UHGV virus genome: UHGV-1358930
Reading direction: 5' to 3' (one strand)
Source of the DNA: a virus
DNA length: 64,000 nt
Shown: in pieces, positions 301 to 58,646 of the stretch
How the letters are laid out: every line of letters begins with the position of its first letter
Position numbering within the stretch: position 1 is the first letter of the stretch
Position numbers and translations under genes: made by a program
Notes under the pieces: generated by a model
What the model saw: the letters and a program-made list of their open reading frames with translations, nothing else
What the model was told of the DNA's origin: nothing
Databases searched by the model: none

Positions 301-302
301 AA

Positions 303-1814
303 ATGCTAAAATCAAACAATGGAAGAACATCCGAAGACTTATCAGGAGTAACTCTACTTGGTAATAACAACACTGAGTACAACTACGACTATACTCCAGA
401 AGTTCTAGAAACATTTGTAAACAAGCATCCTGACAACGATTATGTTGTCACATTTGATGCTTATGAATTTACAAGCAAGTGTGTCACCGGAGACACTATG
501 ATAGATGTTGCATGTAATGAAACTGACAATCCGGATGGAATTCCAATCAAAGATTTGGTAGGTACAGAAGGATATGTGTTTTGTGTAGATCCCACTACAT
601 TACAACCATTATGTAGGAAGTATCGAGATGTACGAAAGACTGGAGAAAGTGTACCTGTAGTTAAAGTACTCATGCAAAGTTTGAGAACAGATGGAAAGGG
701 TAACACATACTATGAATCTTCTGAAATCAAGTGTACACCTGATCATATGATATTGGTGAAAAAAGGATTCCATGATAGCGAATGGGTGTGTGCAAAAGAT
801 CTCAAACCTGGCATGAGGTTGATTGCAAATCAAAGAAGTGGAGATGTAATACGATCTAAACTTCGACACAGACTTATTGGGGAAGCAATTTTTGATGAAG
901 ATATTATGAATATTCATCATATAGACGGTAATCATTACAATAATGACCCATCTAATCTATCTAATTTATCTTCTCATGATCATCACCATCTTCATAGATC
1001 TCAAGAATATGGATACGATAATTTAGATGTATCATACTTAGTTGATCTGTATAACTCCGGAGAAAACTTCAACTCCATAGCAAAGATGTTCAACTGTGAT
1101 GTATCTACCATTGAATCTAGAATAGGTAATATAGTTGGAAGACGGACACAATCAGAGTCATTATCACTACGAAATAACTTGTTGAATAAAGAGCGGGATA
1201 GCGAAATCTGTGAATTGTACAACAAAGGATACTTGCTATCTGAAATTGCAGATTACTTAAATATCCACAGTACAACAGTGTTAGGAGCACTAGAAAGACA
1301 CGGCATCCCTCGCAGAGAATCGAACTTCTCTAGGTACAATCGAAAGAAATTGAACCTCCCACCATTGAATCATAAAGTACTAGCTGTACTAGATGGTGGA
1401 TATGAAGATGTGTACAACATGGAAGTAGAAGGAGTTGAAAACTATTTTGCCAATGAAGTGATAGTCCATAACTGCCCAAAAACGGGGCAGCCAGATTTTG
1501 CAAAAGTTGTAATTAGTTACATTCCTAATGAGAGAATGGTTGAAAGCAAGTCCCTAAAGCTTTACCTCTTTTCTTTCCGCAATCATGGAGATTTCCACGA
1601 AGACTGCATGAACATCATCATGAAGGATCTAATTCATCTTATGGATCCGAAGTACATTGAAGTAAAAGGTATTTTTTCTCCAAGAGGAGGTATCTCCATC
1701 TTTCCCTTTGTTAACTACGCGAATCCGAAATTTAATTATCAGGATTTTGCAAAGTCTCGAATGCTGGAGGCGCTTAGAGATTCGAGCAATAGAACAGTAA
1801 GATACGATATGTGA
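303..1814 (+). CDS. queF: NADPH-dependent 7-cyano-7-deazaguanine reductase QueF (preQ0->preQ1), interrupted by an intein (ORF track start 258 is a TTG inside the leader hairpin; ATG 303 has SD AAGGAG)
   Basis: Exteins 'EFTSK|C..' and '[18 protein letters not shown]...[19 protein letters not shown]' match QueF catalytic motif E(F)TSLCPxTGQPD; intein splice signatures C...HN|C. Confidence 0.8.
480..1472 (+). mobile_element. Intein (~331 aa) inserted at QueF catalytic Cys; contains HNH homing endonuclease motif ([17 protein letters not shown]) and two HTH (sigma-70 region-4-like) repeats
   Basis: Starts '[10 protein letters not shown]' (block A), ends 'VIVHN' followed by Cys+1 'CPKTGQPD'; HNH motif HHIDGN..N. 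Confidence 0.8.
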
Positions 1815-9720: not shown

Positions 9721-10490
9721 TTTAAGGAGAAAGTTTCTCTAACATTCATTGACGTATGTAATCTATTGTAAAGCATTGTTTCTGCAGTTTTTAGTTTACT
9801 TTTTACTGTTTTGCTATCTAATCCATACATATCACATATTTTAAATATATCAGAATCTGTAAGTTTGTGCTCTCTATCTATCATCTCTCTCATCAGAAGT
9901 TCTTCAATAGTATCATAATTATCAGAAGATAGGGAGGTTAATTCAATCGACGGGATGTCCTCAGAAGTCAAGAAGGGTTCATGCTTATCAAGATCAGCTA
10001 TGTATAAGGTTCCAAATATGGCTTTTAATGAATCCATCTTATCTACAGGTAAATGTAACCTTGGATCGGATAGATCTTCGTATTTAACTTGACCCCAATG
10101 TTTACCTAACTGTTCTCCGACTTCCATACATAAAGATCTACGAATGGAGTATTTAACTTCGTTCAACTCTCTTTCAATCATCTCTCCTATACGAAGTAAA
10201 TAAAATACTGAAAACGATAGATCTTGTCTATATCCTTTATGTGTTTCATCACCCTGCCATTTGTACCACCAAAAACATTCACAAAAATGAGTCAGAGCTG
10301 ATTGAAGTTTATCTTCATATGTAACAGTAGAATTGTTGATAAATGTTCTACTTGCTACATATCCAAAAAACGCATAGTTAAGCTCTATTATCTCATCGCG
10401 TTGTTTGAAACATTTCATTCGCTCTGCTTTATTTTGTGGCATAGTCGAATATATGTCTAAGGTTCGTTGTTTTATTTCCTCATTAGTCAT
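9717..10490 (-). CDS. Putative phage-encoded sigma factor-like transcription regulator
   Basis: Weak region-2-like ('DEIIELNYAFFGYVASRT') and C-terminal HTH region-4-like segment; only - strand gene in the early region. Confidence 0.3.
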   Translation of the reverse strand: MTNEEIKQRTLDIYSTMPQNKAERMKCFKQRDEIIELNYAFFGYVASRTFINNSTVTYEDKLQSALTHFCECFWWYKWQGDETHKGYRQDLSFSVFYLLRIGEMIERELNEVKYSIRRSLCMEVGEQLGKHWGQVKYEDLSDPRLHLPVDKMDSLKAIFGTLYIADLDKHEPFLTSEDIPSIELTSLSSDNYDTIEELLMREMIDREHKLTDSDIFKICDMYGLDSKTVKSKLKTAETMLYNRLHTSMNVRETFSLK

Positions 10491-10499
10491 TTTCTAGCA

Positions 10500-11740
10500 C
10501 TCCCGTATCAATTGATGAAATTCTGAAATATTGAAATATTTAATAAACTGAGTAATGTGTAGAATATTGTGAAAACTGAAAATATGAACCTTTGTTAATC
10601 TTACATGTAGAGGTATGTTTAAATCTACAAATATATTATATGAACTTAGTTAGCAGAAGTCAATGTAAATTAGCCAATTCATATCAAAATTTTTATTGAA
10701 ATCAGCAGATTTTCAGAATTTTGAAGTTTTACACAATTTGATCTAACTATAAAGCTAGATAGGAAATAACTATAACAAGCTGTTTGGCATATAGATATGT
10801 TATAGCGAGACTTGAATAGCACTATAAGATAAATAACACGAACTTATCGCAATATCCGAAATTTAGAAATATTGAAGATTTGTGTATGGATCATCTTAAA
10901 CATTGAAATCTACAAAATCTACAATATCTGAAATTTTGAGATATTGTAAATTTGAATACTTTAACATACGTATATTGAATGTGCTTAAAAGATTAAATTT
11001 TCGTAAATTATTTTATTTATAGTTAAAATTTATGATTTGTTAATAGTTATAAACAGTATAAAAGTGATCTATTATTATAAGTGTCACCGTCTAGGTATAT
11101 ATGTATTCAATATATCATATAGTAGATATGTAAGTATTATATATCAAGCACATATCAAAATACTATAGCAAACTAAGTTATATAGGTAATCCCTATATCA
11201 AGGTGTAATCTATATACAGTAATCCCTCACAGCGTAAGTTGAGCATAAACAATGAAATTGAGACATGTAGATATATTATCGCTATATATCTAAACAAATT
11301 GATATAGTATTGACATATAGAGAATCACGTGATATTATAGCAAAACTTCATGGTTATGAAACTTCTATGTAACAAAATCAGTCAGAAACCACCAAAATTT
11401 GAATATTTCAGAATATTGAAATTTCAATAATATGTAAATTTTACAATCTTTCAGAATCGTGAATATTTCAAAATATGAAAATTTCAACTTTCCGCTAAAA
11501 TCACCAGAATTTAGTAAAATTGAAAGAATATGAAAATTTGATGCCTTCAATCTTTCAGAATCTGGTCATTTGGCCGCTTTAATATTATTAAAGAAATTAA
11601 AGTAATTAAAGTTATAATGTTATTAAAGTTATTTTAAAGGAATTAGCCAATTAAAGTAAAAAAGAATTAAAGTAAAAACTCGCAAGCTCGTTTTTACTTT
11701 TTGGTTTGTAATCTGAGAACATAAATTCTGTCAGTAGATA
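10500..11740. repeat. AT-rich non-coding region with dispersed short direct repeats (gaaatattgaaatatt; tttcagaat; gaatatttca(g/a)aat; atgaaaatttcaa; >=6 copies of ATTAAAGT at 11590-11690)
   Basis: No credible ORFs; multiple repeated 8-15-mers; candidate early-promoter/origin/host-takeover region. Confidence 0.5.
11310..11338 (+). promoter_or_regulatory. Consensus sigma-A promoter TTGACA-17-TATTAT
   Basis: ttgaca(11310-15) + 17-nt spacer + tattat(11333-38). Confidence 0.55.
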
Positions 11741-12008
11741 CCTCTATGCTGAAACGCATTGACGTACTTTTATGCGATCATGCGAAACACATAGACGTGG
11801 GCGTGACCTAAACACTACAGTTGATACTGCACATGGTCGGTTCAAACTACGTAGTAGTTGAATTTTTGAGTAATTTGGTGGCGCTTGCGTTGAATATCTG
11901 TCTTCGTCTCGTGTATGCAACGCACGTATGAGTCTCATATGCAAAAAAAATATTCGCCAGCGCATTGGCAAATATCTGTTAGATTTCAAAAATTTATAAA
12001 ATTCGGGG

Positions 12009-15191: not shown

Positions 15192-15768
15192 TTGTATATA
15201 TACACCATATTGTACATACAAACAATGCGACTTAGCTTGTCCTAATAGAGCTGAAGTGAATTGTTGGTTCAAACGATGCCGACTTGATATGTCAAATAAT
15301 TGCTTGCATACTAATATCCGAAATATTGAGAAAGCCGAGGATCTACTAAGTAACAAGTATGGAGAAACTGTGTGGTTTCCCACAGATAATCCTTCAGATG
15401 CAAGCGACACTATTTGCTACGTAGCTATTTGCAAATATGGTAAAGGTACTGCTCTTGGAAACGGAATATACAATCTGGATTTTGCAAAATTTATAGATAT
15501 GATCAAGGAGTCCTGGAATACGCATTTTGAAACAGATAACTTAATTCAGATGCGTGTGTGGTCTTTGTCTGCAAATTACCTAGTTATCTCAAATCTAGAT
15601 TATGTTAGATTTCAAGATTTTGAAAGTCAAACGTTGCTAAGGCTTCTGAATGATCGAAGAGATTATACAAAGACAACTGTAGTAGTTACTAGTAAAGAAC
15701 CTTTGGTCGGCAGCGGAAATTTCTTTCCTAGATTGACTTCTTTGCTAAAGGGGGTCAAGAGCAATTGA
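15184..15768 (+). CDS. Hypothetical protein (194 aa), possibly replication-associated
   Basis: Immediately precedes dnaB with overlap. Confidence 0.4.
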   Translation: MHDCIYTPYCTYKQCDLACPNRAEVNCWFKRCRLDMSNNCLHTNIRNIEKAEDLLSNKYGETVWFPTDNPSDASDTICYVAICKYGKGTALGNGIYNLDFAKFIDMIKESWNTHFETDNLIQMRVWSLSANYLVISNLDYVRFQDFESQTLLRLLNDRRDYTKTTVVVTSKEPLVGSGNFFPRLTSLLKGVKSN

Positions 15769-18188
15769 CGAATTCAGTAGAACTTCAAGTTATTTGTAAA
15801 ATTTTAACAAGTCAAGATGATTCTGAAATTGATAGGCTGTGTGCGTTTGATGAATCCTATTACGCAGTATTCAAAGATCAGATCAAATTTATTCTAGATC
15901 ATAGAGAAAAATATCATACTGTCCCAGACTTGTTTACGTTCCAAGCTCAATTCGAAGACATTGTTTTGATTGATGTAAACGAATCTGCAGATTTTTTAGT
16001 AGACGGACTTCGGAAAAACAAGCAGCAGATCATACTCTTACAAACATTCAATAAGCTATCTGAGTTAGGTTCTGCAGACGTTTCTGAAGCTTGGCAGTTC
16101 TTACAATCCCAATGCGACAAAGCTGCTCAACTTGATAATTCTAACCCGATGGATATCATCAAAGAAGCTCACAAGCGAAGTGATCAAGTTTTATCGCTAA
16201 GTAATCAAACAAGAATTCCTACAGGATTCAAAGAAGTAGATGAAACAATGTATGGAGGATTGTCAACTGTTGAAGAACTTTGTCTTGTAGTTGCTAGAAC
16301 TAACACAGGTAAAGCTCAGCCTCTTTGGAGTAATATCTTAACACCTACTGGGTGGAAGCGTATGCGAGATATTCAAGTAGGAGACATTGTATGCGGTAGA
16401 GATAATGACAATGGTAAAGTAGTTCAAATATTTCCGCAAGGTACAATTGACTACTATCGTGTAAAGTTTGATGATGGTACTTATACGGAGTGTTCTGCAG
16501 ATCATCTTTGGGAAGTTCTGGATAGTGAACGAAGGAAGCATGATAGAAAAACTTATGGTCAGTATCTTACATTGACTACTCGAGATATTCGGAATCATAT
16601 GTATCGCAGATACTCTGTTGATATGTGTGAACAAATTGAATTCGAGAGTGCTTTTGATACAGATAGTGAACTTGACGGATATTTTTTAGGAGCATTTATC
16701 GGGCATGGTAGAAATGTAGGTAACAAGCTATATATTCATTCTCTGTCCGATGTTTCAAAGCGACGTATAATTGATGCATTGTCTAAATATCGTTGTCAAT
16801 TCACAGAAAATGATCCAAATACACTCGTGATTGAGGATAAGAATGATGGTAAGCTTATCCAAAAGATGTTCGAGTACAACTTGATGAACTGCAAAGTCAT
16901 TGATAGACATATTCCGGATATATATTTTCATAGCCCTGTAAATGTTAGAAAAGCTCTGTTATCAGGTCTCTGCGATACAGATAGCACAATGTTATCAAAA
17001 AATCATAGAGGTTGGGTTTTCGTTACATCTTCAGATCAGCTTAAATCTGATTTTGTTTACATTGCTAGATCTTTAGGTGTAAAAGCAAAGGTGTCGACTG
17101 CAAGATCTGGTAGATGGGTTGACTTAGGTGTATCGCACGTTGCGAATACGTACCACAGGGTTATGTGTATCTCAAAATTCAATCCGTTTTATGGTTCACC
17201 AAATTACACAGAATTTGAACGCAGACAGGATAAAACTAAATTTAAAAATCGCAAGCGTGTTTGCAAATTCATTGATTCTATTGAATACGTAGGTAAGACG
17301 GAATGCCAGTGTATCATGGTAGACAATAAGACGCATACATATATTACAGATGATTTTATTGTCACACATAACACCTGGGTTACTACTAAGATGATGGAGT
17401 CTGCACAAGCGAATGGATTTCCTGTACTATATTATAGCCCAGAGATGCAATCTGCTTTCATTGGCACACGATTTGATACCTGGAGAGGTCACTTCCGAAA
17501 TAGCGATATTCAACGAGGTAAATACAGCGAAGACTACATTCAGTACATCAAAGACATTGTTAAAGAGGAAACTGGTGCATTTGTTGCAGAAGACAAAGAT
17601 ATGCCAGGAGGAAAAACAACTGTCAGGTCGATTGAAACTCTAGTCAAGCGACATCATATAAAGCTTGTTATCATTGATGGTCTGTCTTATATGGCAGATA
17701 CAGAAAAGTCTGATAGCGATGTTATTAAGTATAAAAATATATGTACTGGACTATTCCGAATGTCTAAAACATATGGATGTGCTGTAGTAGTATCTGTACA
17801 AGCTAATAGAGACACTAAATCTAATGTCGATGACAAAGGAGTCCCGTGGCCTGATATGTATTCGATTGAAGGCTCAGACCATCCAGGACGTATTGCAACT
17901 CAAGTATTTGCGCTTCGACAATTGTACGAAGAGCATACATTAGAGATAAAGCTGTTGAAGACTAGAAATGCAAAGAATGCAAATCCTACGTTCGCATATG
18001 TATGGGATCCAAATACAGGAAACACAGAGTTTGTTTCGGATGATGCATCGGCTGCTCCTCCTTCTGCTCCTGCACAGCCTAGCAAGTTCTCAACGCCGAC
18101 AGTGTCAGCAAAGATTGTACACACCGATATAGATGATAATCTAATCGATGCCAGTACAGATGACGATCTAGATGACGTTGAGTTTTGA
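15765..18188 (+). CDS. dnaB: DnaB-family replicative helicase interrupted by an intein in the Walker A (P-loop)
   Basis: N-extein ends 'ARTNTGK', C-extein resumes 'TWVTTK' reconstructing GxxxxGKT; downstream RecA-like fold motifs. Confidence 0.75.
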   Translation: MTNSVELQVICKILTSQDDSEIDRLCAFDESYYAVFKDQIKFILDHREKYHTVPDLFTFQAQFEDIVLIDVNESADFLVDGLRKNKQQIILLQTFNKLSELGSADVSEAWQFLQSQCDKAAQLDNSNPMDIIKEAHKRSDQVLSLSNQTRIPTGFKEVDETMYGGLSTVEELCLVVARTNTGKAQPLWSNILTPTGWKRMRDIQVGDIVCGRDNDNGKVVQIFPQGTIDYYRVKFDDGTYTECSADHLWEVLDSERRKHDRKTYGQYLTLTTRDIRNHMYRRYSVDMCEQIEFESAFDTDSELDGYFLGAFIGHGRNVGNKLYIHSLSDVSKRRIIDALSKYRCQFTENDPNTLVIEDKNDGKLIQKMFEYNLMNCKVIDRHIPDIYFHSPVNVRKALLSGLCDTDSTMLSKNHRGWVFVTSSDQLKSDFVYIARSLGVKAKVSTARSGRWVDLGVSHVANTYHRVMCISKFNPFYGSPNYTEFERRQDKTKFKNRKRVCKFIDSIEYVGKTECQCIMVDNKTHTYITDDFIVTHNTWVTTKMMESAQANGFPVLYYSPEMQSAFIGTRFDTWRGHFRNSDIQRGKYSEDYIQYIKDIVKEETGAFVAEDKDMPGGKTTVRSIETLVKRHHIKLVIIDGLSYMADTEKSDSDVIKYKNICTGLFRMSKTYGCAVVVSVQANRDTKSNVDDKGVPWPDMYSIEGSDHPGRIATQVFALRQLYEEHTLEIKLLKTRNAKNANPTFAYVWDPNTGNTEFVSDDASAAPPSAPAQPSKFSTPTVSAKIVHTDIDDNLIDASTDDDLDDVEF
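16314..17372 (+). mobile_element. DnaB intein (~353 aa), class-3-like (N-terminal Ala, Thr+1), with LAGLIDADG homing endonuclease motifs (LDGYFLGAFIGHG; KALLSGLCDTDS)
   Basis: Begins 'AQPLWSN' right after GK, ends 'FIVTHN|T'; block F Cys 'ECQCIMVD'. Confidence 0.65.
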
Positions 18189-18262: not shown

Positions 18263-18420
18263 ATCACACCAGATTTGAAAATAAACATTAAATACCTTTA
18301 TTTTCTTAATCTGTTCCTCTTTCAACGACCTTGCTTGACAAGTCAAGTCTTACTAGATCTCCAGAGGCGTTAATTTCCGCTTGTGCAGCGGTATTTGTTA
18401 TTTTTAGGAGAAAGCTATTC
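18263..18420 (-). ncRNA. Putative TnpB omega-RNA (reRNA) scaffold at tnpB 3' end/right end of element
   Basis: Conserved (>90% identical) in second copy at 63718-63880 while flanks diverge; position matches known omega-RNA location. Confidence 0.4.
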
Positions 18421-19540
18421 TCAAGCCCTCGTTCAATATATTCTTTGATGCATTGATATCTCTATCATGTGTTGTTTGACAATTAGGACAAGTCCAATTT
18501 CTAACTTCAAGATTTTTGACTTCTGGATTTTTGAATCCGCAACAGCTACAAGTTTGAGAAGACGGAAAGAAGGCGTCTATTTTGACAAGTTGTTTTCCAT
18601 ACCAGCTGCACTTGTAAGTCAATAGTTCAACGAATTTTGACCAGCTTGCGTCTGAAATTGCTCTTGCTAGTTTATGATTCTTGACCATATTTTTGACTTT
18701 CAAGTCTTCAACACAGATTATGTCGTGGTTTTTGACAAATTCTGTTGACAGCTTGTGCAAGAAATCATTTCGTTGATTTGAAACTTTCTCAAATTGTTTA
18801 GCAAGTCTGATTCTTGATTTGTTTCTGTTATTAGATCCTTTTTGCTTCTTCGAGAGCTGTCTTTGAAGTCTTCTTAACTTCTTAGTAGACTTTGAAAGGT
18901 ATTTCGGATTTTTGATCTTTTCACCGTCTGAAGTTATTGCGAAATCTTTGATGCCGAGGTCAATTCCTACAACAGATCCAGTTTTGTCAAACTCTTCAAT
19001 TTCAACATCTTTGCAACAGATACTTGCAAAATATTTTCCTGAAGCTGTTTTTGAGATGGTTGCCGAAAGCGGAGTTCCTTTGACATTTAAATTTCCTTTG
19101 AATTTAACCCATTTCAATTTAGGCAAGAAGATCTTGTTATCTAAACAATGAAATTGTGCAGGTGTGGAGTATGTAGCCTTATATGACTGTCTACTTGAAA
19201 GTTTCTTCTTAAATTTAGGATAACCTGGTTGCTTTCCATTCTTTACGTTTCTAAAGAAGTTTTGATACGCAGTATCAAGATCTCTAAGAGACGATTGCAA
19301 AGCCATTGCTTCAGGTTCTTTCAACCATGAATATTCGTCAAGCTTCTTGAGCTTTGTTAAATCTGCAGAATTTTGATTATATGTATTTGACTTTCTTGCC
19401 TCTTCATAATCTTTGATGGATTTAGCAAGATAGTAGTTGTAGACAAATCTGCAGCAGCCAAAGGTTTTTGCAATTTGCTCAATCTGCTGCTTGTTCGGAT
19501 ATATCCGTATTTTATAAGCTTTCAGAATCATTTTGGTCAT
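18404..19540 (-). CDS. tnpB: TnpB (OrfB) RNA-guided nuclease-like transposase accessory protein, IS605/IS607 family
   Basis: '[11 protein letters not shown]...FGCCRFVYN' N-term; C-terminal Zn finger 'CSCCGF...[18 protein letters not shown]'. Confidence 0.8.
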
Positions 19541-20132
19541 CTGAAAGTGCCTCCTTGATTTTAGCTACGCTTCTCTTAGAATACATTTTCATTGAGTAAC
19601 AGTGCAGTAAACTTACGATTTCTTCAAAAATTTCTTCAGAATCAAGTTTTTCGGATCCTAGTTGGGACGCAACAACTATCTCTGTTCCAAATTTTCTAAA
19701 AAGATGATAAAATAGATCAAATCCTACTCTAGACAGTCTGTCTTTATAATTGATAACTACTTTCTCAACTTTATATTCCAATACATCGTCTAATAGTTCA
19801 AAAAACTGTTTTCTGTTTTCAAAAGAAATTCCGGAAGCAACCTCTTGAAAAACACCATCGACTTGAATTCCGGAATTCATGCAAAAACTGTTCAAAGATT
19901 CAAGTTGGTTCGCTAGATCCGATTTTTGAGATATTGTAGAAACTCTAGCGTAGATATAATTTTTTCTTGTTTGACCGTTATTTAATATAGAGTAGACGTC
20001 TTTATCATGATAGATGCGCTTACCTGTAGGTGTTAAGTCATAATGAATGAGTCCTCTTTTGCAATAATGACCAAGTGTTGGCTGTGAAATATTCAATAGT
20101 TGTAACACTTGTTTAGCTTTCATATTGATCAC
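19512..20132 (-). CDS. tnpA: IS607-type serine recombinase TnpA (MerR-like HTH + resolvase catalytic domain)
   Basis: '[17 protein letters not shown]' HTH then '[14 protein letters not shown]' catalytic Ser motif. Confidence 0.75.
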
Positions 20133-20184: not shown

Positions 20185-21192
20185 ATGCTATATATGAATA
20201 TTGATACCATAATTGATAAACTTTCATCTCAAGGGTTTATACGCCTAAATAGGCATATAGGCGACTACTATAGCTGCTATTGCCCATTTCACAGTGATGG
20301 AAAAGAGAAAAAGCCGTCCTCTGGTATATTGCTAAGAGACCAGTATCGCAATGGACAGCACTATCCTGCTGGATTCTTTAACTGTTTCACTTGTCACCAT
20401 GCATATCAACTGGAAGAGTTCATCACAGAGCTATTGAAAGTTAATTCTATCCACATGTCTGGTAGAGATTGGCTCATCAAGAATGATCCAGATTATGATC
20501 CAGATACAGAATTTGAATATCTCTTACCTAGAGATATGATGCAGTCTGTCGTGAATTCTTTTGCATTAAAGCAGATATCTAGTAAGTCGGGAGTTCAAAA
20601 ACCTTCATTCATATCTGAGTCAGAACTTTCTAAGTATAGATACACAGTACAGTATATGTATGACCGAAAACTTACAGACACTGTGATCGACTTATTTGAC
20701 GTAGGGTTTGATGCTAATTTCGTTCCAGCAGGAAGAAAGAAATCAGTTCCATGCGTCACATTCCCGGTAAGAGATGTCCACGGAAATACGCTGTTCATCT
20801 GCAGACGATCGATTGAAGGAAAATCATTCTATCTACCGTCAAACATAGAAAAATCTGTATATGGGCTGTATGAATTACCTCAAGGATGTAAATCTGTTAT
20901 CATCGCGGAAAGCTGCTTCAATGTTCTAACTTCTTACGTTTACGGTGTACCTGCTGTAGGTCTACTAGGTACTGGTACTCCTCATCAGATTTCTCAGCTT
21001 AGAAGTTTAGGTGTAAATGAGTTTGTATTAGGATTAGATCCAGATGAAGCAGGAGATAGAGCTTGCAAGCGATTGAAACGAGCACTCGGCGATATTGCTA
21101 TTATCCGACGCATGAATGGAATACCTGAAGGAAAAGATATAAATGACCTCACCAAGTCTGAATTTTTAGACATATACAGAAGTAGAATGTGA
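20185..21192 (+). CDS. DNA primase (DnaG-like, CHC2 Zn finger + TOPRIM)
   Basis: 'CYCPFHSDGKEKKPS' Zn ribbon; TOPRIM 'IIAESCFN...LGLDPDEAGDRA'. Confidence 0.7.
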   Translation: MLYMNIDTIIDKLSSQGFIRLNRHIGDYYSCYCPFHSDGKEKKPSSGILLRDQYRNGQHYPAGFFNCFTCHHAYQLEEFITELLKVNSIHMSGRDWLIKNDPDYDPDTEFEYLLPRDMMQSVVNSFALKQISSKSGVQKPSFISESELSKYRYTVQYMYDRKLTDTVIDLFDVGFDANFVPAGRKKSVPCVTFPVRDVHGNTLFICRRSIEGKSFYLPSNIEKSVYGLYELPQGCKSVIIAESCFNVLTSYVYGVPAVGLLGTGTPHQISQLRSLGVNEFVLGLDPDEAGDRACKRLKRALGDIAIIRRMNGIPEGKDINDLTKSEFLDIYRSRM

Positions 21193-25096: not shown

Positions 25097-26365
25097 TTGA
25101 GTTTATTTACCAAGTCACAAATGGCGAAATTCAATGAAGTTGCCGAACGAAGCAAACAGCTTAACAAAGAAAAACCAAAGTCTGTAAATGTATCTACAGT
25201 AAATGCGGAATTGAAGTCGATGTCAGATTCTGTGCTAGAATACTTCAAAGACTCCCCTGCTATCTGCATTCGAACCGCTGATCAGCTACATGAATACATT
25301 GATAAATGTATCGAAGCTGGATACGCTGGTATAGATACAGAAACAACGGGACTAGACAGACAAAGAGATTACATTGTAGGCGCGTCTTTATATTATCCGG
25401 ATGGTACAGAATGTTATATTCCGATGAAACATAAGATCCCTATTTTCGAAACTCCTTACAAAAATCAACTGTCTTATGAAGAAGTAACTAAAGAATTCAA
25501 ACGACTAGAAAACAGCAACATACGACTCATTTTTGCAAATGCTGACTTCGACTTAGCAATGATCTACAAGGATCTAAAAGTTGATTTCAACGATAGATTC
25601 TATTATGATGTTATTCTTGCATGGCGTTGTTTGAAGGAGAATGAGTTACACAATGACTTGAAATTCCTTTACAATAAATATGTATTGAAAGGAAAAGGAG
25701 ATCCTAAACGTTTTAGCGATTTCTTTTCTGTAAAGCTGTTCCCATATTCTGATCCTGAAATCGCTAAATTGTACGCAGCAAACGACGCAAAAATCACATT
25801 TCAACTGTTCAAGTGGCAGCTTCCTTATGTTACAGAAAGTCATCCTAAGTGTCAGAAAGCTCACCTAGAAGCAATATCTAGACTCATTTGGAACATAGAG
25901 TTTCCACTGGTTAAAGTCTGCCAGAATATGTATAGAAGAGGTTCATACATTGATTCTAATGTTGCTAGTGTTTTGAAAAAGCGATACAGAGATGAATACA
26001 ATGTAGAAGTCAAAAAGCTACAAGACATGGTACAAAAAATCATTGATAATACGAATATAGCATATTCAGGTAAACGTCCATTTACTAGAGGAGCAGATTT
26101 CAACCCATCTTCACCTCCTCAAGTTAAATATTTGATATACAATCTACTTCAAATTCCTAAAGGATCGTCTTCTGGAACAGGTAAAGAAGTATTGAACGAA
26201 CTTAATCTGCCTGTAACAAATCAGATACTGAAGGTAAGATCTCTATCTGTACTTATCAATACATTCGTAGAGAAGCTACCAGCTGCCGCAAGTCTGGATC
26301 ATAGAATTCATGGTCAGTTCAAGCAGGTGGGTGCAGCCACGGGCAGGTTGTCTTGTGCCGAGCCT
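25097..26365 (+). CDS. polA: DNA polymerase I (family A) exon 1: 3'-5' exonuclease domain and N-terminal polymerase part, ends '...TGRLSCAEP'
   Basis: Exo I 'GIDTETTGLD'; '..ATGRLSCAEP' = TGRLSSxxP motif; ORF then runs into intron. Confidence 0.75.
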
Positions 26366-27271
26366 AAACATGATAAATCAGATTGGGCTCGTAAAATCGA
26401 GTTAATTCAGGGAAGGGTAGCAGCTTGACGCTGTGAGATAACCCTGAGCCAAGGCTCTCATATATCTACTTAGGAGGTACACGATATGAGAAAGATTCAA
26501 TTCAATGAAGAGACCATCAATGCAATTAAAAATTTTATAGAGTCTGGTCACACAATGGAAGAGACATGTAACAGATTTACGCTCAAATACGATACATTGA
26601 AACGTGTAATGTTTGAGAACAATCTGAAGCCGTATAGAGCAGATAAATCACATCCCGTTATCTTCACTAGAGATGAGGAAAACATCGTATGTAAGCTATA
26701 TTCGACAACTTCAATGACAATGAAAGATATCTGTAAAGAAGTGAAGCTACCTGATTACGCTGTGCAGAAAATACTATCGGATAATTTTTCTGAAAAATAC
26801 AGAAATGAAAGGAAAGCAAAGCTTTATAGATTGTCCAAACGGTGCGAGAATAGTCCGTGGTTTCAGAAATACGGAGCAGACTCTTCTCAGTGGGTCGGAG
26901 GCGTTGTAGACGATGGCAACGGATATGATATGATCAAAAAACCTGAGTGGTACACAGGTAGAAAGTGTTCTGATTATGTCTTTTTACATACAGTTGTGAT
27001 GTGTGAGCACTTAGGTCTAACTGAACTTCCTAAAGGATATGTAGTACATCATATCGACGGAAACAAGAAAAATAACACAATAGATAATTTAGCGTTGATG
27101 ACCGTGTCAGGACACAGTAAGTTACATTTGTTGATGAAGAATCTATGCAAGGTGCAGAGACTATCCGAACAGGAGTAAGCGAAAGCTGAAATGCTAGACA
27201 ATGGTTGTGTATGACATCTATCATTCCTACTAGTTATACAAGCCATCGAAGATATAGTCCACAAATAATTG
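26366..27271 (+). mobile_element. Group I intron 1 in polA carrying an HNH homing endonuclease ORF
   Basis: Exon ends in U, intron ends in G; canonical S element AAGATATAGTCC at 27249-27260; exon 2 resumes 'NLMNIP'. Confidence 0.65.
26486..27178 (+). CDS. Intron-encoded HNH homing endonuclease (I-HmuI-like)
   Basis: 'GYVVHHIDGNKKNNTIDNLALMTVSGHSKLH' HNH motif; SD AGGAGG. Confidence 0.75.
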   Translation: MRKIQFNEETINAIKNFIESGHTMEETCNRFTLKYDTLKRVMFENNLKPYRADKSHPVIFTRDEENIVCKLYSTTSMTMKDICKEVKLPDYAVQKILSDNFSEKYRNERKAKLYRLSKRCENSPWFQKYGADSSQWVGGVVDDGNGYDMIKKPEWYTGRKCSDYVFLHTVVMCEHLGLTELPKGYVVHHIDGNKKNNTIDNLALMTVSGHSKLHLLMKNLCKVQRLSEQE

Positions 27272-27349
27272 AACCTGATGAATATCCCGTCGCATGCGGT
27301 TGATATTCGACATATGTTCAGAGCAACTCCCCAGAAAGATTACACAGTT
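27272..27349 (+). CDS. polA: polA exon 2a (26 aa: NLMNIPSHAVDIRHMFRATPQKDYTV; contains motif A Asp 'DYT')
   Basis: Aligns to PolA 'NLQNIPVRT...IRRAF...DYSQ'; junction inferred. Confidence 0.5.
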
Positions 27350-28710
27350 GAATCAGAAGTAGATGACAATAACGAAGTATCATTCGTTATTGATAATGGA
27401 CATGAATTACAAACATCTGAAGGATATAAGCCAGTAGTAGATATTGTTCCCGGAGATGTTGTAATGTTTGATGATAAGGAGGTATCAAGCTTAATTGTCA
27501 AAGAAGTTGAAACTAAAGGTACGTCAACCCGAGTACGTTTTGATGTCATCTGACTACAGTTTACGAAAGTTGGCTGTAGTAAAACCTTGTTAAGTCGATG
27601 AATACTTGATAGATAATTCTATAACCTAAATACAAGAATTGGTTCGACTATCAAGTTAATATCGAGCAAAATAGGACCTTTTATCTTGTTGAGTATAGTC
27701 TCTTAAAAATTGGAGGTATTCGACATGATAATATATAAAATATACAATGATGTTAATTCTAAGCTTTACATCGGTCAAACAACAAAATCGCTTGAAGAAA
27801 GAATAAATGGGCATCATTCTTCTATGATAGGAGGGCAAGATACTCATCTATATCGAGCAATGCGAAAATACGGATGGGAAAAGTTTCATTTTGAAATAAT
27901 ATCCAGAGCTGATAGTCAAGATGAATTAAATTATCTTGAAGAGTATTATATCCGTAAGTTAGATACAATAAGAAATGGATATAACATGGCTCCAGGAGGA
28001 TCAAAAAATGTTATGTACTCATCTATCGTAGCAGCTAAACATGATGCTAAAATGAGAACAGATTCTGTAAGAAAGAAAATATCAGAATCAATGAAAAAGT
28101 CTTATGCTTCACGCGGTGGTCCCTCAGAAGAACACAGGAAGCATCTTTCACAAGCCAAGAAGGAATATTATCAAACTCCTGAAAGCGAATTGACACGAGA
28201 AAGGTTTAGAAAGTCATTCAAGCTATCTCCTGAGCATTATAAGGCACTGAATGACGCGAAAAACAAAAGTGTATATTGCATAAATGAATCTAATGAAGTA
28301 GTTGCAAAATTTGATAGGGTCAAAGATGCAGCTATTTGGTGGATGTCTACTGGGTACAAAGTTAAACATTATGATCAACTTTGTGACAAAATAAAAGAGT
28401 CCAGCAAGCAAAATAGATTCATAAAGGGGCTAAAATGGTTCTATTGTGTGTAGAGACTATCGAAAGCTAGAAATTGACATTCAGAGAAATCTGTAAATGA
28501 TTTTAGGTAAATCAGGTCAGTTGAGATAACCAAGTGAGTAGAGTACAGCTCAAGTGAGTTAGCATCTGCATGATATTAGTGTAGAGTAAGCCTATTGAAT
28601 GGAAATTCAAGGGTTCATTTGAATTGGTGATAGATTCAAATGTTCAAGAGATAGTCCGGCACTCTTGGTGACAAGAGAAATGTTTAACGAACATTCAACT
28701 AATTAAGCAG
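27350..28710 (+). mobile_element. Group I intron 2 in polA carrying a GIY-YIG endonuclease ORF
   Basis: S-like element AGAGATAGTCCGG 28647-28660; shares GAGATAACC element with intron 1. Confidence 0.5.
27710..28453 (+). CDS. Intron-encoded GIY-YIG homing endonuclease
   Basis: 'IYKIYNDVNSKLYIGQTTKSLEERINGH' GIY-YIG motif + R..E. Confidence 0.75.
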   Translation: MEVFDMIIYKIYNDVNSKLYIGQTTKSLEERINGHHSSMIGGQDTHLYRAMRKYGWEKFHFEIISRADSQDELNYLEEYYIRKLDTIRNGYNMAPGGSKNVMYSSIVAAKHDAKMRTDSVRKKISESMKKSYASRGGPSEEHRKHLSQAKKEYYQTPESELTRERFRKSFKLSPEHYKALNDAKNKSVYCINESNEVVAKFDRVKDAAIWWMSTGYKVKHYDQLCDKIKESSKQNRFIKGLKWFYCV

Positions 28711-28911
28711 CAAGAACCAAAAATTTGCGCATACGTAGGTAACATCAAAGAACTTTGCGAAGGTTTTGCAAACGGGAAAGATGCTTACGCGATGATCGCA
28801 GCTGTTTCTTTCAATAAGTCATATGAAGAATGCTTAGAGTTTCACCCTGTTACGCATGAGTATCAGCCTGAAGGTAAAGCAAGAAGAACAGAATCGAAGT
28901 CCGTACTTTTG
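28711..28911 (+). CDS. polA: polA exon 2b (67 aa, ends '...ARRTESKSVLLG' = motif B RRxxKxxNFG)
   Basis: 'QEPKICAYVGNIKELCEGFANGKDAYAMIAAVSF' aligns to Bsu PolI 'IELRLLAHIADDDNLIEAFQRDLDIHTKTAMDIF'; not annotated in ORF track (no start codon). Confidence 0.5.
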
Positions 28912-29936
28912 GGTGAACGTAAAAGTTATGCCCCATATTTCAAGTTCTCGCATTAAATTTGCTTGAAATATGAAAATCTTGTGAACTACATTGCTCATAG
29001 GTGTTGAGAACACGATTAGGATATACAGGAAATGGTATATAGGTTCTCAGCTAACTGGGGATACTCAAAAGAGTGAATCCAGTGCCAAGCATCAAGTCTT
29101 CACGGAGTTCTATACCTTACATCATATCGGAGGTGTAGAACTTGAACAATTATTCATCATACATCATAACTTGTAAGGACAATGGAATGCAATACATCGG
29201 AATAACTTCTATTGGTTTAAGAAATAGGTGGTATGCACATGTTTCATGTTCTCGAAATTTAAGTAGTAATAATCCAATGTATAAGGATATGAAAGAATTT
29301 GGAGAATCCTCTTTTGAAATACATGAAATTGAATCTGGGTTATCAAAAGAAGAAGCCGATGCGCGTGAAAAGGAACTAATAAAGATTTATAATACAAAGT
29401 GGCCTAACGGATACAACTTAACAGACGGTGGATTCAAGAATGATGGACAGTTATTACCAGAAGGTCGATCGGCTAGAATATCTTGTAAGCTACGCGGAGT
29501 TCCTAAATCAAGCGAGCATAGATTGCATCTAAGTCAGTCTAGGATTGGAAAATACAAAGGAGCAGACAACGCCTTCTATGGTAAACATCATTCTGATGAA
29601 ACTATATTGAATCTTCAGAAGCTATTATCCCACGGAAAGGTTTATCAGTTAGACAAAAAATCTAAATTAGTTGTAGGCACATTTGATAGCGCAGCGTTTG
29701 CAGCAAGATACATATCTGAAAACAAATTATCTTCTGCAAAAATAGATACTATAAATGCTAGATTATGCGAAGTTATGAACAATGATAATCGTTCCGCATA
29801 CGGTTTTATGTGGAGACGCGATGAAGGTCAATCGACTAAGTATTAGAAGAGAAAATAGAGCTACTCTTCGAAGCGCAAGACATTAAGCGAGATAATGATG
29901 ATATAGTCAGCGCCACAAGTGATTGTGGACTAAGTG
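28912..29936 (+). mobile_element. Group I intron 3 in polA (splits motif B) carrying a second GIY-YIG endonuclease ORF
   Basis: Exon 2b ends ..GGT (U), intron ends ..AAGTG (G); S-like GATATAGTCAG at ~29900. Confidence 0.55.
29142..29846 (+). CDS. Intron-encoded GIY-YIG homing endonuclease (second copy, paralog of 27710)
   Basis: 'YIITCKDNGMQYIGITSIGLRNRWYAH' GIY-YIG; C-terminal region similar to 27710 ORF. Confidence 0.75.
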   Translation: MNNYSSYIITCKDNGMQYIGITSIGLRNRWYAHVSCSRNLSSNNPMYKDMKEFGESSFEIHEIESGLSKEEADAREKELIKIYNTKWPNGYNLTDGGFKNDGQLLPEGRSARISCKLRGVPKSSEHRLHLSQSRIGKYKGADNAFYGKHHSDETILNLQKLLSHGKVYQLDKKSKLVVGTFDSAAFAARYISENKLSSAKIDTINARLCEVMNNDNRSAYGFMWRRDEGQSTKY

Positions 29937-31433
29937 GTACTTTACGGACGTTCTATTCCTTCAATTGCTGATCAGTTATATGGCAAACGAGACGATATGA
30001 CAGGTGAGCAGAAACTAAAAGCAGCTCAGAAGGTGTTTGACGCAGTTATGGGAGCTTTTCCTGGACTGAAAAATCTAATGATCGGGTCTCAAGATTTTGC
30101 AAGAAAGCACGGATATACGGAAACAATTTTAGGTAGAAGACGACATATTCCAGATATGCAGCTGCCTGAATTTGAATTTAAGGCGATGAAAGGATATGTT
30201 AATCCTGATATTGACCCGACAGATATCACTACGCTGGAAAACAAAGATGAGATCCCCGAAAGAATTGTAAACGAGCTTTACAAAGAATTTAAAACGTACA
30301 AATACTACGGTCAAATCGCAAAGCGTACAAAGCAGCTATATGAAGAAGATCATATTAGGGTGATAAATAATAGACCTAAGATAAATGATGCAACTCGTCA
30401 GTGTGTTAACTGTGTTGACTTCGATACTGAGATACTAACAACAGACGGATTCAAAAGATATGACGAGGTATCTATAGGCTACACGATTATTTCATATAAC
30501 TTAGCTAAAGACTGCTTAGAGGAAGATGCCATTGAAGGTATTCATATCGATGATAGAGATGTTAAGGGATATGAATTCAATGCGCCGGAGCTATCTTGCG
30601 TATGCACAGATAATCACAGATGGGTTATTCAAGATACTCTGTATGAACACCCTGAAATCGTGACAGCTGAAGAATACGTCTGTGATTATGGTTGTCTATT
30701 CCCGATTTTAGCATCCGCTGGATCTGAATTACCTGGATCGTTTGGAGAATATTCTCAAGCAGAGTTCGGTGTATTAGCATATCTACTTTACTACAATGCA
30801 ATCAGGTTAATTGAAAACGGTACTACGTGGCTAACATTCAAGTGGAATAGCCCTAATCAGAAATCGTTTGATTCACTTATTCAGTTTCTTCGTAGCACAA
30901 AGTTTGATTATCAGATAAGTAGCACAGGTGATCCAGTATGCACAGAAGTAAAGATTGCATACAATACATTTTTATTCGATGTGTATACTAGCCTCAAGGG
31001 CAACAAACTAACCAATGAGTTTGTAAGCTTATTATCCGGTGAGCAAGCTTCTCAGCTTTGGTGGACATTTGCATACCTGAAAAATCCGGATTTAAAGCTA
31101 GATGAGAATATTTCAATTGTTTTTGACAGCTTGTCTGACGCAGATGTATTTCAGCATCTCTGCTATCGAGCAGGACATTTTAGCAGATGCATTCCGCTAA
31201 AGGATATGATTGATGCGGTAGATGAGCCACACATTGAAGACAGAATTCAGGAGCCTTCTAACAATCAATATGTAGTTACTACATATCAGCATAACACTGT
31301 CAATATGTGGGACAAGCGATATGTAAAACGAACAACATTACACGGCTGCTGGTGCGTAACTACTAACAACGGAACATGGGTTGCTAGACGAAATGGTTCT
31401 GTATTTCTCACAGGCAACTCTATTATTCAGGGT
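29937..31433 (+). CDS. polA: polA exon 3 ('VLYGRSIPSIADQLYGK...' motif B continuation, fingers/palm) containing an intein; ends 'NSIIQG'
   Basis: 'RRHIPDM' like PolA 'GRRRYVPD'; 'TRQCVN|..|SIIQG' = ERMAFNMPVQG motif. Confidence 0.65.
30412..31418 (+). mobile_element. Intein (~335 aa) in polA between '...RQCVN' and 'SIIQG' (coordinates +/- 2 nt)
   Basis: Starts 'CVDFDTEILTTDG' (block A), block B 'CTDNHRW', ends 'VFLTGN|S'; removal restores N(S)IIQG(S)AAE motif. Confidence 0.6.
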
Positions 31434-31791
31434 AGATACTTGCTGCCCTTATCTATCTAACCTTATTGCTCAAGGGTGTGCTCATATATTTGAGTGCTAA
31501 CGGTATCAGTGACATAAGACTGCTTCACGAAGCGAGAGAGATGTGAAGCTCTTCTACTAGTAGAAGATCCATAGACGAATCAGCTGACTAAGAAAGCCTA
31601 AGGTCTAATTATTCAATTAGATAGCTGGTAATACCGTGTCAAGTGCACCTTATACAGGGTGTAAAGATGTATCGACTAGCTCGCGTTGTTGCGAGGGTAG
31701 GTCTGAAGACGAGCTGCAGACTGAAATGGTAGACTGCAATTATTTTGCAGAAGATATAGTCAGGTTGTATGGAAACATGCATTGCTGCACG
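31434..31791 (+). mobile_element. Group I intron 4 in polA, ORF-less (~358 nt), splitting 'QG|SAAE'
   Basis: GC-richer structured segment; S element AAGATATAGTCAGG at 31751-64; exon ends in U, intron ends in G. Confidence 0.55.
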
Positions 31792-32301
31792 AGCGCGGCG
31801 GAACTTACAAAGATGGCTATTTTGAAGCTTGAGAACAACAAGGAATGGCAGAGAATTGGAGGAAGATTACTGGTACCTATCCACGATGAATTGCTGACAG
31901 AAGTCCCTGCACGTTATGCTGAGGAGGGTGCAAAAATCCTATCGGATTCAATGTGTGGAGCTGCAGATTTCATGCCGTTTCCAATTACATGTGACGTTGA
32001 GACTACTTATCGATGGTATGGTATGGCATATCCTTGTCCTTACAAGAAACCGAATTCTATCGACACGAATGATGAAGATGAGATAAAGTGGATTCAGTAT
32101 CATCTAAGAGAATCCGAATACCTGCTGCCAGTACTGAAGGACGAAAACGGTGAAAAACCTAGAGGTGATGCAGCCAAGGGTGTAAACGGTGTTAGAACCC
32201 CTGAAATGGAATCTGCTATTGAAGATTATATTAAATCTCGACATATTTTAAAAGAAGATTTCATTGATACTATTGATCGAGAGGTTGACATCGGCGGATA
32301 G
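31792..32301 (+). CDS. polA: polA exon 4 ('SAAELTKMAILKL...VPIHDELLTEVP' motif C)
   Basis: Matches PolA 'TAADLMKLAM...VHDELVLE'. Confidence 0.7.
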   Translation, partial: SAAELTKMAILKLENNKEWQRIGGRLLVPIHDELLTEVPARYAEEGAKILSDSMCGAADFMPFPITCDVETTYRWYGMAYPCPYKKPNSIDTNDEDEIKWIQYHLRESEYLLPVLKDENGEKPRGDAAKGVNGVRTPEMESAIEDYIKSRHILKEDFIDTIDREVDIGG

Positions 32302-53806: not shown

Positions 53807-53822
53807 TTGAGGTAATATATTG

Positions 53823-58609: not shown

Positions 58610-58646
58610 AGAGCAGGCAACGATTGTCTGCTCTGTTTTGCTGTTT
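58610..58646. terminator. Bidirectional terminator between convergent genes (agagcag...ctgctct + GTTTTGCTGTTT)
   Basis: 7-bp stem, T-rich 3'. Confidence 0.5.

Follow-up and report, generated by a model that had tools for sequence, protein, structure and literature searches.

Class 3 inteins have no nucleophile at position 1 and carry instead a Trp at B:12, a Cys at F:4 and a Thr at G:5 (the WCT triplet), along with a C-terminal Asn and a Ser or Thr, in rare cases a Cys, at the +1 position of the downstream extein. Mechanistic criteria of the class are a strict need for the F:4 Cys and a thiol-labile branched intermediate at block F (Tori 2016). Membership further calls for homology to experimentally proven class 3 inteins, and both the definition and the residue positions used here follow Tori 2010 (PMC2807308), Kelley 2016 and Tori 2016. 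The prototype of the class is the MP-Be intein of mycobacteriophage Bethlehem ('DnaB', TerL1-c; Tori et al. 2010, PMC2807308). A preliminary description of the locus treated below held that such inteins were first described in mycobacteriophage DnaB; this has to be corrected, as the host protein of MP-Be, gp11, now goes by the name of large terminase. Two other Bethlehem proteins were considered as the home of the prototype and rejected: the intein of gp52, a phosphoesterase, is another one and looks like class 1, and the DnaB-like gp62 holds no intein.

Bacterial DnaB proteins are themselves hosts to class 3 mini-inteins, among them the DnaB-1 inteins of Mycobacterium smegmatis, M. leprae and M. 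chimaera (PDB 6bs8, 6rix; PMC6195587, PMC5222942, PMC7664689). Metagenomes and phage genomes have also yielded P-loop inteins that start with AQPL, and these are known from the phage ATPases PhoH, IstB-like, terminase, SNF2 and DnaB. The WCT triplet alone is no guarantee of activity, since grafting it onto a class 1 intein gave no splicing (PMC7664689).

The element described here lies in a 64,000-nucleotide stretch of the viral genome UHGV-1358930 (the window), within an ORF of 807 aa at 15765..18188 (+) that encodes a DnaB-like replicative helicase (Table 1). Sequence comparisons make it very probable that this insertion is a class 3 intein whose LAGLIDADG homing endonuclease is degenerating. 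The start of the helicase matches homologs beginning MTNS[IV]ELQ, C-extein residues 540-738 match Pfam DnaB_C (E 1.4e-12), and the columns that are invariant with intein-free homologs include Walker B as well as DGLSY (638-642) and QANR (679-682). An identical 807-aa protein is called on 5 contigs, and because the two places shown are separate ENA assemblies, the intein-bearing helicase is not an assembly artefact. The invariance of the core motifs, taken with the calls on 5 contigs, argues that the helicase must be functional. Megablast of the helicase gene against 50,697 phage records returned no match, and the best tblastn matches of the spliced helicase in the phage collection, from Bacillus, Clostridium and Streptococcus phages, reach 31% identity. 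Within the window, tblastn found no paralogous intein, and neither Rfam (at the gathering threshold) nor ARAGORN reported anything.

Table 1. Features of the intein-bearing helicase gene (window coordinates; counts are out of 157 full-length intein relatives)
Feature	Coordinates	Strand	Remarks
N-extein	15765..16313	+	helicase residues 1-183, TTG start
First part of Walker A, ARTNTGK	16293-16313	+	end of N-extein
Whole intein, AQPLW...FIVTHN	16314..17372	+	353 aa, helicase residues 184-536
Ala1 codon, GCT	16314..16316	+	non-nucleophilic first residue
Block B core, S61-A-D-H64-L-W66	16494..16511	+	codons read
His B:10, H64	16503-16505	+	His in 157/157 relatives
Trp B:12, W66, the W of WCT	16509-16511	+	Trp in 154/157 relatives
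LAGLIDADG homing-endonuclease domain	16665..17234	+	intein about 118-307
First LAGLIDADG motif, LDGYFLGAFIGHG	16671..16709	+	intein 120-132
His131 (CAT), at the place of the metal-binding Asp/Glu	16704-16706	+	
Arg198 (AGA), K-F-I-P block	16905..16907	+	Lys in 151/157 relatives, Arg in 5
Second LAGLIDADG motif, LLSGLCDTDS	16956..16985	+	intein 215-224
Asp223, retained	16980-16982	+	Asp in 153/157 relatives
Block F core, E-C331-Q-C333-I-M-V-D (ECQCIMVD)	17301..17324	+	intein 330-337
Cys333 (TGT), F:4	17310-17312	+	putative first nucleophile
Block G end, Thr351 (G:5, the T of WCT), His352, Asn353	17364..17372	+	
C-extein	17373..18188	+	residues 537-807 plus stop

The limits of the element are set by its empty sites. 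In an alignment with five intein-free homologs, whose exteins are 62-72% identical, a single gap opens directly behind K183 and closes directly ahead of T537, which places the element between the Walker A Lys, invariant in DnaB-family helicases, and the Ser/Thr that follows it. The N-terminal junction reads ...ELCLVVARTNTGK / AQPLWSNILTPTGW... and the C-terminal junction ...DDFIVTHN / TWVTTKMMES.... A synthetic intein-free site would read ...ACAGGTAAA / ACCTGGGTT..., and the reconstituted insertion site ...GCTAGAACTAACACAGGTAAA / ACCTGGGTTACTACTAAGATG.... The boundaries in the DnaB P-loop that had been proposed from the sequence alone thus prove exact, and the strings quoted in support of them are all present in their places. 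Among the best 120 extein homologs, 63 are intein-free (GK followed directly by S), while in the other 57 the site is filled by an intein that starts with AQPL; mini-inteins of 175-217 aa are seen at this site in the same helicase family. The P-loop of close intein-free homologs is ARTNxGK-SWVCTK; in the window helicase, Thr+1 (ACC, 17373-17375) finishes Walker A as GKT, and splicing would leave ARTNTGKT.

With the junction fixed by intein-free alleles, Ala1 is the true first residue of the intein, as it is in 105 of 157 full-length relatives (Cys occupies the position in one). The remaining splicing residues hardly vary among these relatives. His and Trp of block B align with H65/W67 of both MP-Be and the Mch/Msm DnaB inteins, while the counterparts of C333 are C320 in MP-Be and the VRC-motif Cys in 6rix/6riy. 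All 157 relatives have Cys at 333, and 59 have it at 331. The end of block G is Thr in 156, His in 153 and Asn in 157 of these relatives, and the +1 residue is Thr in 127, Ser in 28 and Cys in 1. The element accordingly has every residue by which class 3 is recognized, namely Ala1, the complete triplet (W66, C333, T351), H64, N353 and Thr+1, and it is homologous to experimentally proven class 3 inteins; an alignment with these, which had been suggested as a check, superposes its key residues on S62/H65/W67/C320/T339/N341 of MP-Be. The class 3 assignment of the preliminary description therefore holds, with two refinements. The WCT hallmark is present, but its T is Thr351 at G:5, not Thr+1 (Tori 2010), and the block-F Cys that had been noted in ECQCIMVD can be narrowed to the second Cys of ECQC as the nucleophile. 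The G:5 and +1 residues of the window intein are both Thr.

Two other splicing routes would be open in principle to an intein that starts with Ala: direct attack by the +1 residue on the N-terminal peptide bond, as in class 2 (KlbA-like) inteins, or class 1 splicing from a cryptic Cys/Ser junction lying upstream or downstream. Ala1 does occur in class 2 KlbA inteins, but these have no WCT triplet (Tori 2010, PMC2807308), whereas that of the window intein is complete, and the class 2 route was closed to the class 3 Bvi IcmO intein even when its +1 residue was Cys (Tori 2016). Class 1 splicing starts from a Cys, Ser or Thr at position 1, where the window intein has Ala. A canonical Cys/Ser junction elsewhere had been named as the finding that would overturn the class 3 reading, and none is compatible with the intein-free alleles; these fix the junction between K183 and A184, and with any shift of it the GK[ST] P-loop would be lost. 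We also know of no precedent for a Thr+1 hydroxyl that attacks an amide directly. Taken together, these points make either route exceedingly improbable.

The steps proposed for the window intein are taken from the published class 3 pathway. Since the intein splits the P-loop, the precursor would be unable to bind ATP. Cys333, placed with His64, Trp66 and Thr351, would attack the Lys183-Ala184 bond to give a thioester-branched intermediate, from which the N-extein would be handed to the Thr+1 hydroxyl, forming the block G branched intermediate. Cyclisation of Asn353 would then release the intein, and an O-to-N shift would yield the mature helicase. We infer both splicing and the Cys333 thioester intermediate from the sequence. 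As for the failed WCT graft, the whole domain of the window intein, and not just its triplet, is homologous to active class 3 inteins.

It could also be asked whether the insert is a non-splicing relic, with the helicase a pseudogene or the precursor acting without ATPase activity. Degenerate class 3-like inteins do exist in non-functional genes, as in the Arth_1007 pseudogene of Arthrobacter FB24 (PMC3196547). Against this, the splicing residues of the window intein are all intact and its HINT halves are as conserved as its exteins (60-67% versus 57-61% identity to P0136, the closest allele). The exteins are full length with the helicase motifs all invariant, the phage was assembled from more than one sample, and no second DnaB_C match was found among the 22 largest window ORFs scanned. 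A relic is therefore very improbable, and a splicing class 3 intein remains the preferred reading.

The insert's match to the intein family is far beyond chance. In a phmmer search against 1.84 billion cluster representatives it matched 14,692 at E<=1e-3 and 1,095 at E<=1e-30, and tblastn found full-length relatives in 749 phage records; the family is known and very large, and the window intein is a new but ordinary member of it. An AF2 model (pLDDT 86.5, pTM 0.87, from a shallow input alignment of 12 rows) predicts a HINT domain (intein about 1-117 and 308-353) split by the LAGLIDADG endonuclease. Foldseek with this model finds PI-SceI at E 1e-17 and TM 0.72-0.78, and class 3 DnaB inteins superpose in their HINT core at an rmsd of 1.2-1.3 A over 69 columns with 35% identity. 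The Pfam HINT models stay below their cut-offs (Hint_2, 15.8 bits; Hom_end_hint, 14.6 bits) and are too weak alone, so the call of a splicing domain rests on the comparisons with PDB entries, the prototype and the family.

The endonuclease is more readily recognized by Pfam, Hom_end (PF05204) scoring 25.6-25.8 bits on the intein against a cut-off of 21.1. Foldseek matches of the domain are PI-SceI, TliVMA, PI-PfuI and I-DmoI, and in the predicted model two helices, at 122-131 and 209-223, each lead into a strand, the pattern expected of a PI-SceI-type LAGLIDADG domain. Both LAGLIDADG motifs that had been reported are thus borne out by the Hom_end match and by the PI-SceI-like predicted fold.

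The active site, on the other hand, has changed. The acidic residues of the LAGLIDADG helices are essential for cleavage (PMC3384342), and the one that should end the first helix is replaced by His131, while that of the second helix is kept. Position 131 is Asp in 137 of the 157 relatives, Glu in 4, Asn in 11, Lys in 2 and Gly in 2, and among the roughly 158 inteins compared His occurs there in the window intein alone; nearby, Gly122 stands where Pro is usual (147 of 157). The Lys of the K-x-I-P block is replaced by Arg198, the residue at which a weak phmmer match to the PI-SceI chain 1um2_A begins. The Lys usual at this position may be equivalent to the catalytic Lys of PI-SceI. A catalytic role would also follow by analogy with K42/K120 of I-DmoI (PMC3384342). 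Finally, Ser224 takes the place of a near-invariant Gly (153 of 157 relatives). Three of four near-invariant active-site positions are thus altered (Asp to His131, Lys to Arg198, Gly to Ser224), with Asp221, Pro201 and Tyr204 retained alongside the remaining Asp223. All four canonical residues are kept by 135 of the 157 relatives, and at least three deviations are seen in only one.

The domain as a whole has also diverged rapidly. It is 31-38% identical to the endonuclease domains of P0136, P0003 and P0004, which are 58-65% identical among themselves, whereas the exteins of all four are equidistant at 55-69%; the divergence of the window endonuclease is about double that found among its nearest relatives. 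The collections searched hold no intein allele more than 50% identical. The endonuclease is probably catalytically dead, and the earlier suggestion that it is possibly decaying, made from His131 alone, is strengthened by Arg198, Ser224 and the fast divergence. That said, a switch to another target, and not decay, could account for the rapid divergence, and the Asp223 active site is formally still in place.

The class 3 intein might therefore be thought to remain mobile, its endonuclease either making double-strand cuts through an unusual metal site that includes His or acting as a strand-specific, Asp223-only nickase. The LAGLIDADG fold is confidently predicted, both helices are retained together with Asp221/Asp223 and Pro201/Tyr204, the domain has none of the in-frame deletions found in the 57 mini-intein alleles, and point mutations in LAGLIDADG active sites can yield nickases (PMC3943268). 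Yet the near-invariant positions have changed together, in a combination of at least three deviations that is rare among relatives; none of these has His at 131, the acidic residues are described as essential (PMC3384342), and the rate at which the domain evolves is about double that of its sister alleles. An active endonuclease is thus unlikely, though it deserves some weight. We would give rather less to the proposal that the altered endonuclease has been kept for a new role, or that, independently, the C331-x-C333 pair serves as a redox or metal switch. In the first case the domain may be a sequence-specific nickase or a non-cutting DNA binder that ties helicase maturation to the phage replication origin or to its own gene. 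If the second were true, splicing, and so phage replication, would depend on conditions, much as in M. smegmatis DnaBi1, whose redox control uses Cys48.

On the preferred reading, that of a class 3 intein with a decaying endonuclease, the endonuclease domain would formerly have spread the element into intein-free alleles and would since have lost its first metal-binding Asp, its block D Lys and the Gly after the second Asp. Given these losses and the unusually fast divergence, the intein most likely persists only because its splicing is obligatory. The element would represent a late stage in a cycle of invasion, fixation, endonuclease decay and shrinkage, a cycle that the mini-inteins at the same site make visible in the same helicase family. 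A single site thus offers a natural series (empty, intact-endonuclease intein, crippled-endonuclease intein, 175-217 aa mini-inteins) that could be used to study the homing cycle. The locus contributes a class 3 intein with sharply defined limits; it comes from an uncultured phage, and the best match to the helicase in the phage collection is only 31% identical. That a phage carries the intein agrees with a published proposal in which phages are the source from which class 3 inteins spread. Members of the class that have Thr+1 also hold some interest as protein-engineering tools. The significance is modest, and nothing here should surprise a specialist.

Among characterized inteins, the prototype MP-Be is a close counterpart in organization: like the window intein it is full length, LAGLIDADG-bearing and phage-borne (341 versus 353 aa), and it has B:7 Ser, B:10 His, B:12 Trp, F:4 Cys, G:5 Thr, His-Asn and Thr+1 near the same positions. 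BLASTP of the window intein against MP-Be (from AY500153) gives E 1e-18 over residues 4-353, with 25% identity. The two differ at their start, MP-Be having Pro1 after Gln-1 where the window intein has Ala1, and in their insertion sites, a poorly conserved helix of the large terminase as against the P-loop. MP-Be also keeps GDG and DSDG in its endonuclease and cuts DNA, whereas the window intein has GHG and DTDS. The mycobacterial DnaB-1 inteins share the host protein type, the P-loop site (GK, then Ala1 ... HN, then Ser/Thr) and the WCT/His/Asn set, with the flanks FGVGK and STLGL in Msm/Mle, and their PDB sequences match at 6e-8 (MchDnaB1, 6rix) and 8.5e-6 (MsmDnaB1, 6bs8). They are bacterial, however, and at 139-145 aa have lost the endonuclease domain that the phage intein retains.

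Two class 1 inteins resemble the window intein in other ways. The gp41-1 split intein of a cyanophage-like metagenomic helicase is the best PDB match (engineered WCT variant 6riz, 9.2e-9; wild type 6qaz, 6.7e-7); like the window intein it resides in a phage replicative helicase and ends in THN, but it is naturally split, with Cys1, Phe at B:12 and Asp at F:4, and its WCT graft is non-splicing. PI-SceI, the yeast VMA1 intein, is the best fold match and likewise combines HINT with a LAGLIDADG endonuclease, yet it is class 1 (Cys1, Cys+1), only 13-16% identical, and its endonuclease is active, with an additional region for DNA recognition present in the protein. The nearest kin are the AQPL-starting inteins, which have near-identical GK/AQPL..., ECQCIMVD and FIVTHN/T segments, 30-46% full-length identity and the same endonuclease type, and from which the window intein departs in combining His131 with R198 and S224. 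P0136, an 805 aa DnaB, carries the same allele type at the same site, its intein being 46% identical, and, unlike the window intein, it keeps both GDG and DTDG.

The insert splits the P-loop of a DnaB-like replicative helicase whose open reading frame (ORF) begins with TTG and encodes 807 aa; in a Pfam search, residues 540-738 matched DnaB_C (E 1.4e-12), and AAA_25 matches too. Read directly, this ORF contains every string quoted in the preliminary description. The intein spans helicase residues 184-536 (353 aa), with junctions reading ...VVARTNTGK / AQPLWSNILTPTGW... and ...DDFIVTHN / TWVTTKMMES.... Used as a query, the helicase after conceptual splicing (454 aa) returned 1,136 homologs at E<=1e-10. 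Aligned with the window protein, five intein-free homologs (~450 aa, 62-72% identical, reading ARTNxGK-SWVCTK) share a single gap that opens immediately after K183 and closes immediately before T537, so the first inserted residue is Ala184, the last Asn536 and the +1 residue Thr537, and the boundaries first proposed are upheld. No canonical Cys/Ser junction can lie elsewhere, since any shift would break the GK[ST] P-loop common to all homologs. Among the best 120 of the 1,136, 63 lack an intein and have Ser following GK; the remaining 57 are interrupted at this very point by an insert of 175-217 aa that starts AQPL. Gene calls on five contigs give the identical 807-aa protein (the two occurrences listed lie on a 162-kb and a 108-kb contig of separate ENA assemblies), and the intein is not an assembly error.

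Class 3 inteins lack an N-terminal Cys, Ser or Thr, usually have Ser or Thr at +1, and bear a non-contiguous WCT triplet (Trp at block B:12, Cys at F:4, Thr at G:5), of which the Cys is an obligate nucleophile forming an extra branched intermediate (PMC2807308; PMC5050341; PMC5222942). The window intein has Ala1, Ser61 (B:7), His64 (B:10) and Trp66 (B:12) in its N-terminal part, and Cys333 (F:4), Thr351 (G:5), His352 and Asn353, then Thr+1, at its C-terminal end. The class 3 assignment made from the sequence is thus borne out by Ala1, the full triplet and Thr+1, with the prototype aligned at E 1e-18. Some details needed correction, none of which alters that conclusion. Thr+1 had been taken for the T of the triplet, which is in fact Thr351; the block-F Cys noted in ECQC is present, but the nucleophile is the second Cys, since the first (C331) is found in only 59 of 157 relatives; and the class prototype is indeed a mycobacteriophage "DnaB" intein, but begins with Pro1 and lies in a large terminase gene.

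phmmer, run exhaustively against 1.84 billion cluster representatives, gave 14,692 hits at E<=1e-3, of which 1,095 reached E<=1e-30; residue counts refer to 157 full-length aligned relatives. His at B:10, Cys at F:4 and the terminal Asn occur in all 157, Thr at G:5 in 156 and Trp at B:12 in 154. Position 1 is Ala in 105 (Ser 9, Glu 8, Cys 1), and +1 is Thr in 127 (Ser 28, Cys 1). The host proteins are mostly P-loop ATPases cut directly after GK: PhoH, IstB-like, AAA_24, SNF2, terminase and DnaB. The window intein is a fairly divergent new member of a very large, well-described family: its identity reaches at most 46% with cluster representatives and ~30% with sequences from cultured phages.

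While anatomy, residues and homology were observed directly, we infer the splicing steps from the published class 3 pathway. The precursor helicase would be inactive because its P-loop is split. Cys333 would attack the Lys183-Ala184 bond to give a thioester branch, Thr+1 would take over the N-extein, Asn353 would cyclise, and an O-N shift would restore the P-loop ARTNTGKT. The helicase motifs are invariant in the alignment with intein-free homologs, and a second DnaB_C match was found in none of the 22 largest window ORFs scanned, so replication very probably depends on splicing.

The LAGLIDADG motifs described earlier, with His for the first catalytic Asp, are confirmed: Pfam Hom_end scores 25.6-25.8 bits (cut-off 21.1), and in an AlphaFold2 model each motif is a helix (122-131 and 209-223) with a strand after it. 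The domain departs repeatedly from positions nearly invariant in the 157 relatives, having Gly122 (Pro in 147), His131 (Asp in 137, Glu in 4, His in none), Arg198 (Lys in 151) and Ser224 (Gly in 153); Asp223 is kept (Asp in 153). Of the relatives, 135 retain the full set of four canonical active-site residues, and three or more deviations occur in only one. WhiA, which lacks the essential LAGLIDADG acidic residues, is not a nuclease (PMC3384342). The nearest allele, in an 805-aa DnaB (P0136), has an intein at the same site, 46% identical to the window's, whose endonuclease retains GDG, DKFIP and DTDG. Over the C-extein core, pairwise identities among the window protein, P0136 and two further relatives (P0003 and P0004) are all roughly similar (55-69%). 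Within the endonuclease domain these three relatives are mutually 58-65% identical, yet each is only 31-38% identical to the window copy. Between the window protein and P0136 the HINT halves (60-67%) are as conserved as the exteins (57-61%). This comparison of relative rates points the same way as the active-site substitutions, toward endonuclease decay, and the earlier suggestion of a possibly decaying enzyme gains support from the His131, Arg198 and Ser224 deviations and the low domain identity. The endonuclease is most likely dead, a nickase being the less likely reading. Because stops or frameshifts would kill the helicase, decay can be visible only as substitutions and in-frame deletions; the window copy shows the former, and the 57 alleles with mini-inteins at this site show the latter. 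The His/Arg/Ser combination is the only unusual detail of this intein.

The window comes from an uncultured phage; its GC content is ~0.36-0.37, and almost all of its genes lie on the same strand. Among its other products are a T4-like portal, RecA, a clamp loader, a Toprim primase and a family-A polymerase in fragments. Selfish elements are unusually abundant in the window.

Features of the window, with one intein of phage Bethlehem (record L003)
Feature	Coordinates	Strand	Remarks
DnaB-like helicase ORF	15765..18188	+	
Helicase intein	16314..17372	+	
QueF-like protein with second intein	258..1814	+	Pfam Intein_splicing
Low-GC stretch	10001..12000		GC 0.29 (~0.36-0.37 elsewhere); zero GC skew
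IS607-type element	18404..20132	-	between helicase and primase genes
TnpB	18404-19540	-	HTH_OrfB_IS605, OrfB_IS605, Cas12f1-like TNB
Serine recombinase	19512-20132	-	MerR-type HTH; overlaps TnpB
Toprim primase gene	20185..21192		
Family-A polymerase region	25097..32301	+	at least 3-4 pieces
Polymerase piece	25097-26428	+	exonuclease; profile positions 26-126
HNH endonuclease ORF	26486-27178		free-standing, between pieces
Possible polymerase piece	27269-27553	+	
GIY-YIG endonuclease ORFs	27710-28453, 29142-29846		two, free-standing, between pieces
Polymerase fragment ORF	29934..31460		
Polymerase piece	29934 to ~30440	+	profile positions 233-288
Probable third intein	about 30440..31440	+	in polymerase fragment ORF; junctions by eye
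Polymerase piece	31636-32301	+	profile positions 297-380
DUF7487-repeat protein	53820..55958	+	paralog 1 of 3
DUF7487-repeat protein	58645..60303	-	paralog 2 of 3
DUF7487-repeat protein	61066..62817	+	paralog 3 of 3; fused to N6/N4 DNA methyltransferase domain
Bethlehem gp52	L003 7578..9296	-	phosphoesterase with intein

The second intein, in a protein of the 7-cyano-7-deazaguanine reductase family, is unrelated to that of the helicase. It looks like class 1 (Cys1, Cys+1), scores 44.5 bits with Pfam Intein_splicing (cut-off 35.8), is inserted directly before the CPxTGQPD motif (...YEFTSK / intein; NEVIVHN / CPKTGQPDF), and holds an HNH-like motif with HTH_38/HTH_7 domains in place of LAGLIDADG. 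Rfam at its gathering threshold detected no intron in the polymerase region, whose fragmentation may reflect either unrecognised introns or a split polymerase. The insert in one fragment (...RQCVN / CVDFDTEILTTDGFKRY ... RNGSVFLTGN / SIIQG), matching no Pfam family at E<=0.05, is by its junctions a probable third intein. The IS607-type element lies on the strand opposite to almost all other window genes, and its arrangement recurs on a second assembly. The low-GC stretch, in which no ORF of at least 150 aa, tRNA or Rfam family was found, could be an origin or regulatory region.

The AlphaFold2 model of the helicase intein was built on a 12-row alignment (mean pLDDT 86.5, pTM 0.87). For this model, Foldseek against the PDB ranks full-length intein endonucleases first, with PI-SceI (E 1e-17, TM 0.72-0.78) followed by TliVMA and PI-PfuI, and the HINT part fits the class 3 Mch and Msm DnaB inteins with an rmsd of 1.2-1.3 Å over 69 columns at ~35% identity. 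The MP-Be prototype, taken from Mycobacterium phage Bethlehem (AY500153, gp11), has 341 aa and residues P1, S62, H65, W67, C320, T339, H340 and N341, numbered exactly as in PMC2807308. The alignment with class 3 inteins that the preliminary description had proposed pairs all key residues of the window intein with these (BLASTP E 1e-18 over residues 4-353). The same phage has another intein, in its phosphoesterase gp52 (...EGNHD / CSWTNARAV ... IHLTGN / SRARDY), which is not related to the prototype and probably corresponds to the "gp51 RDF" intein described by Kelley et al. (2016; PMC5050341). In a PDB sequence search the window intein best matched WCT-engineered gp41-1 (6riz, 9.2e-9), and it also matched MchDnaB1 (6rix, 6e-8) and MsmDnaB1 (6bs8, 8.5e-6), both of them class 3 inteins occupying the same DnaB P-loop site.
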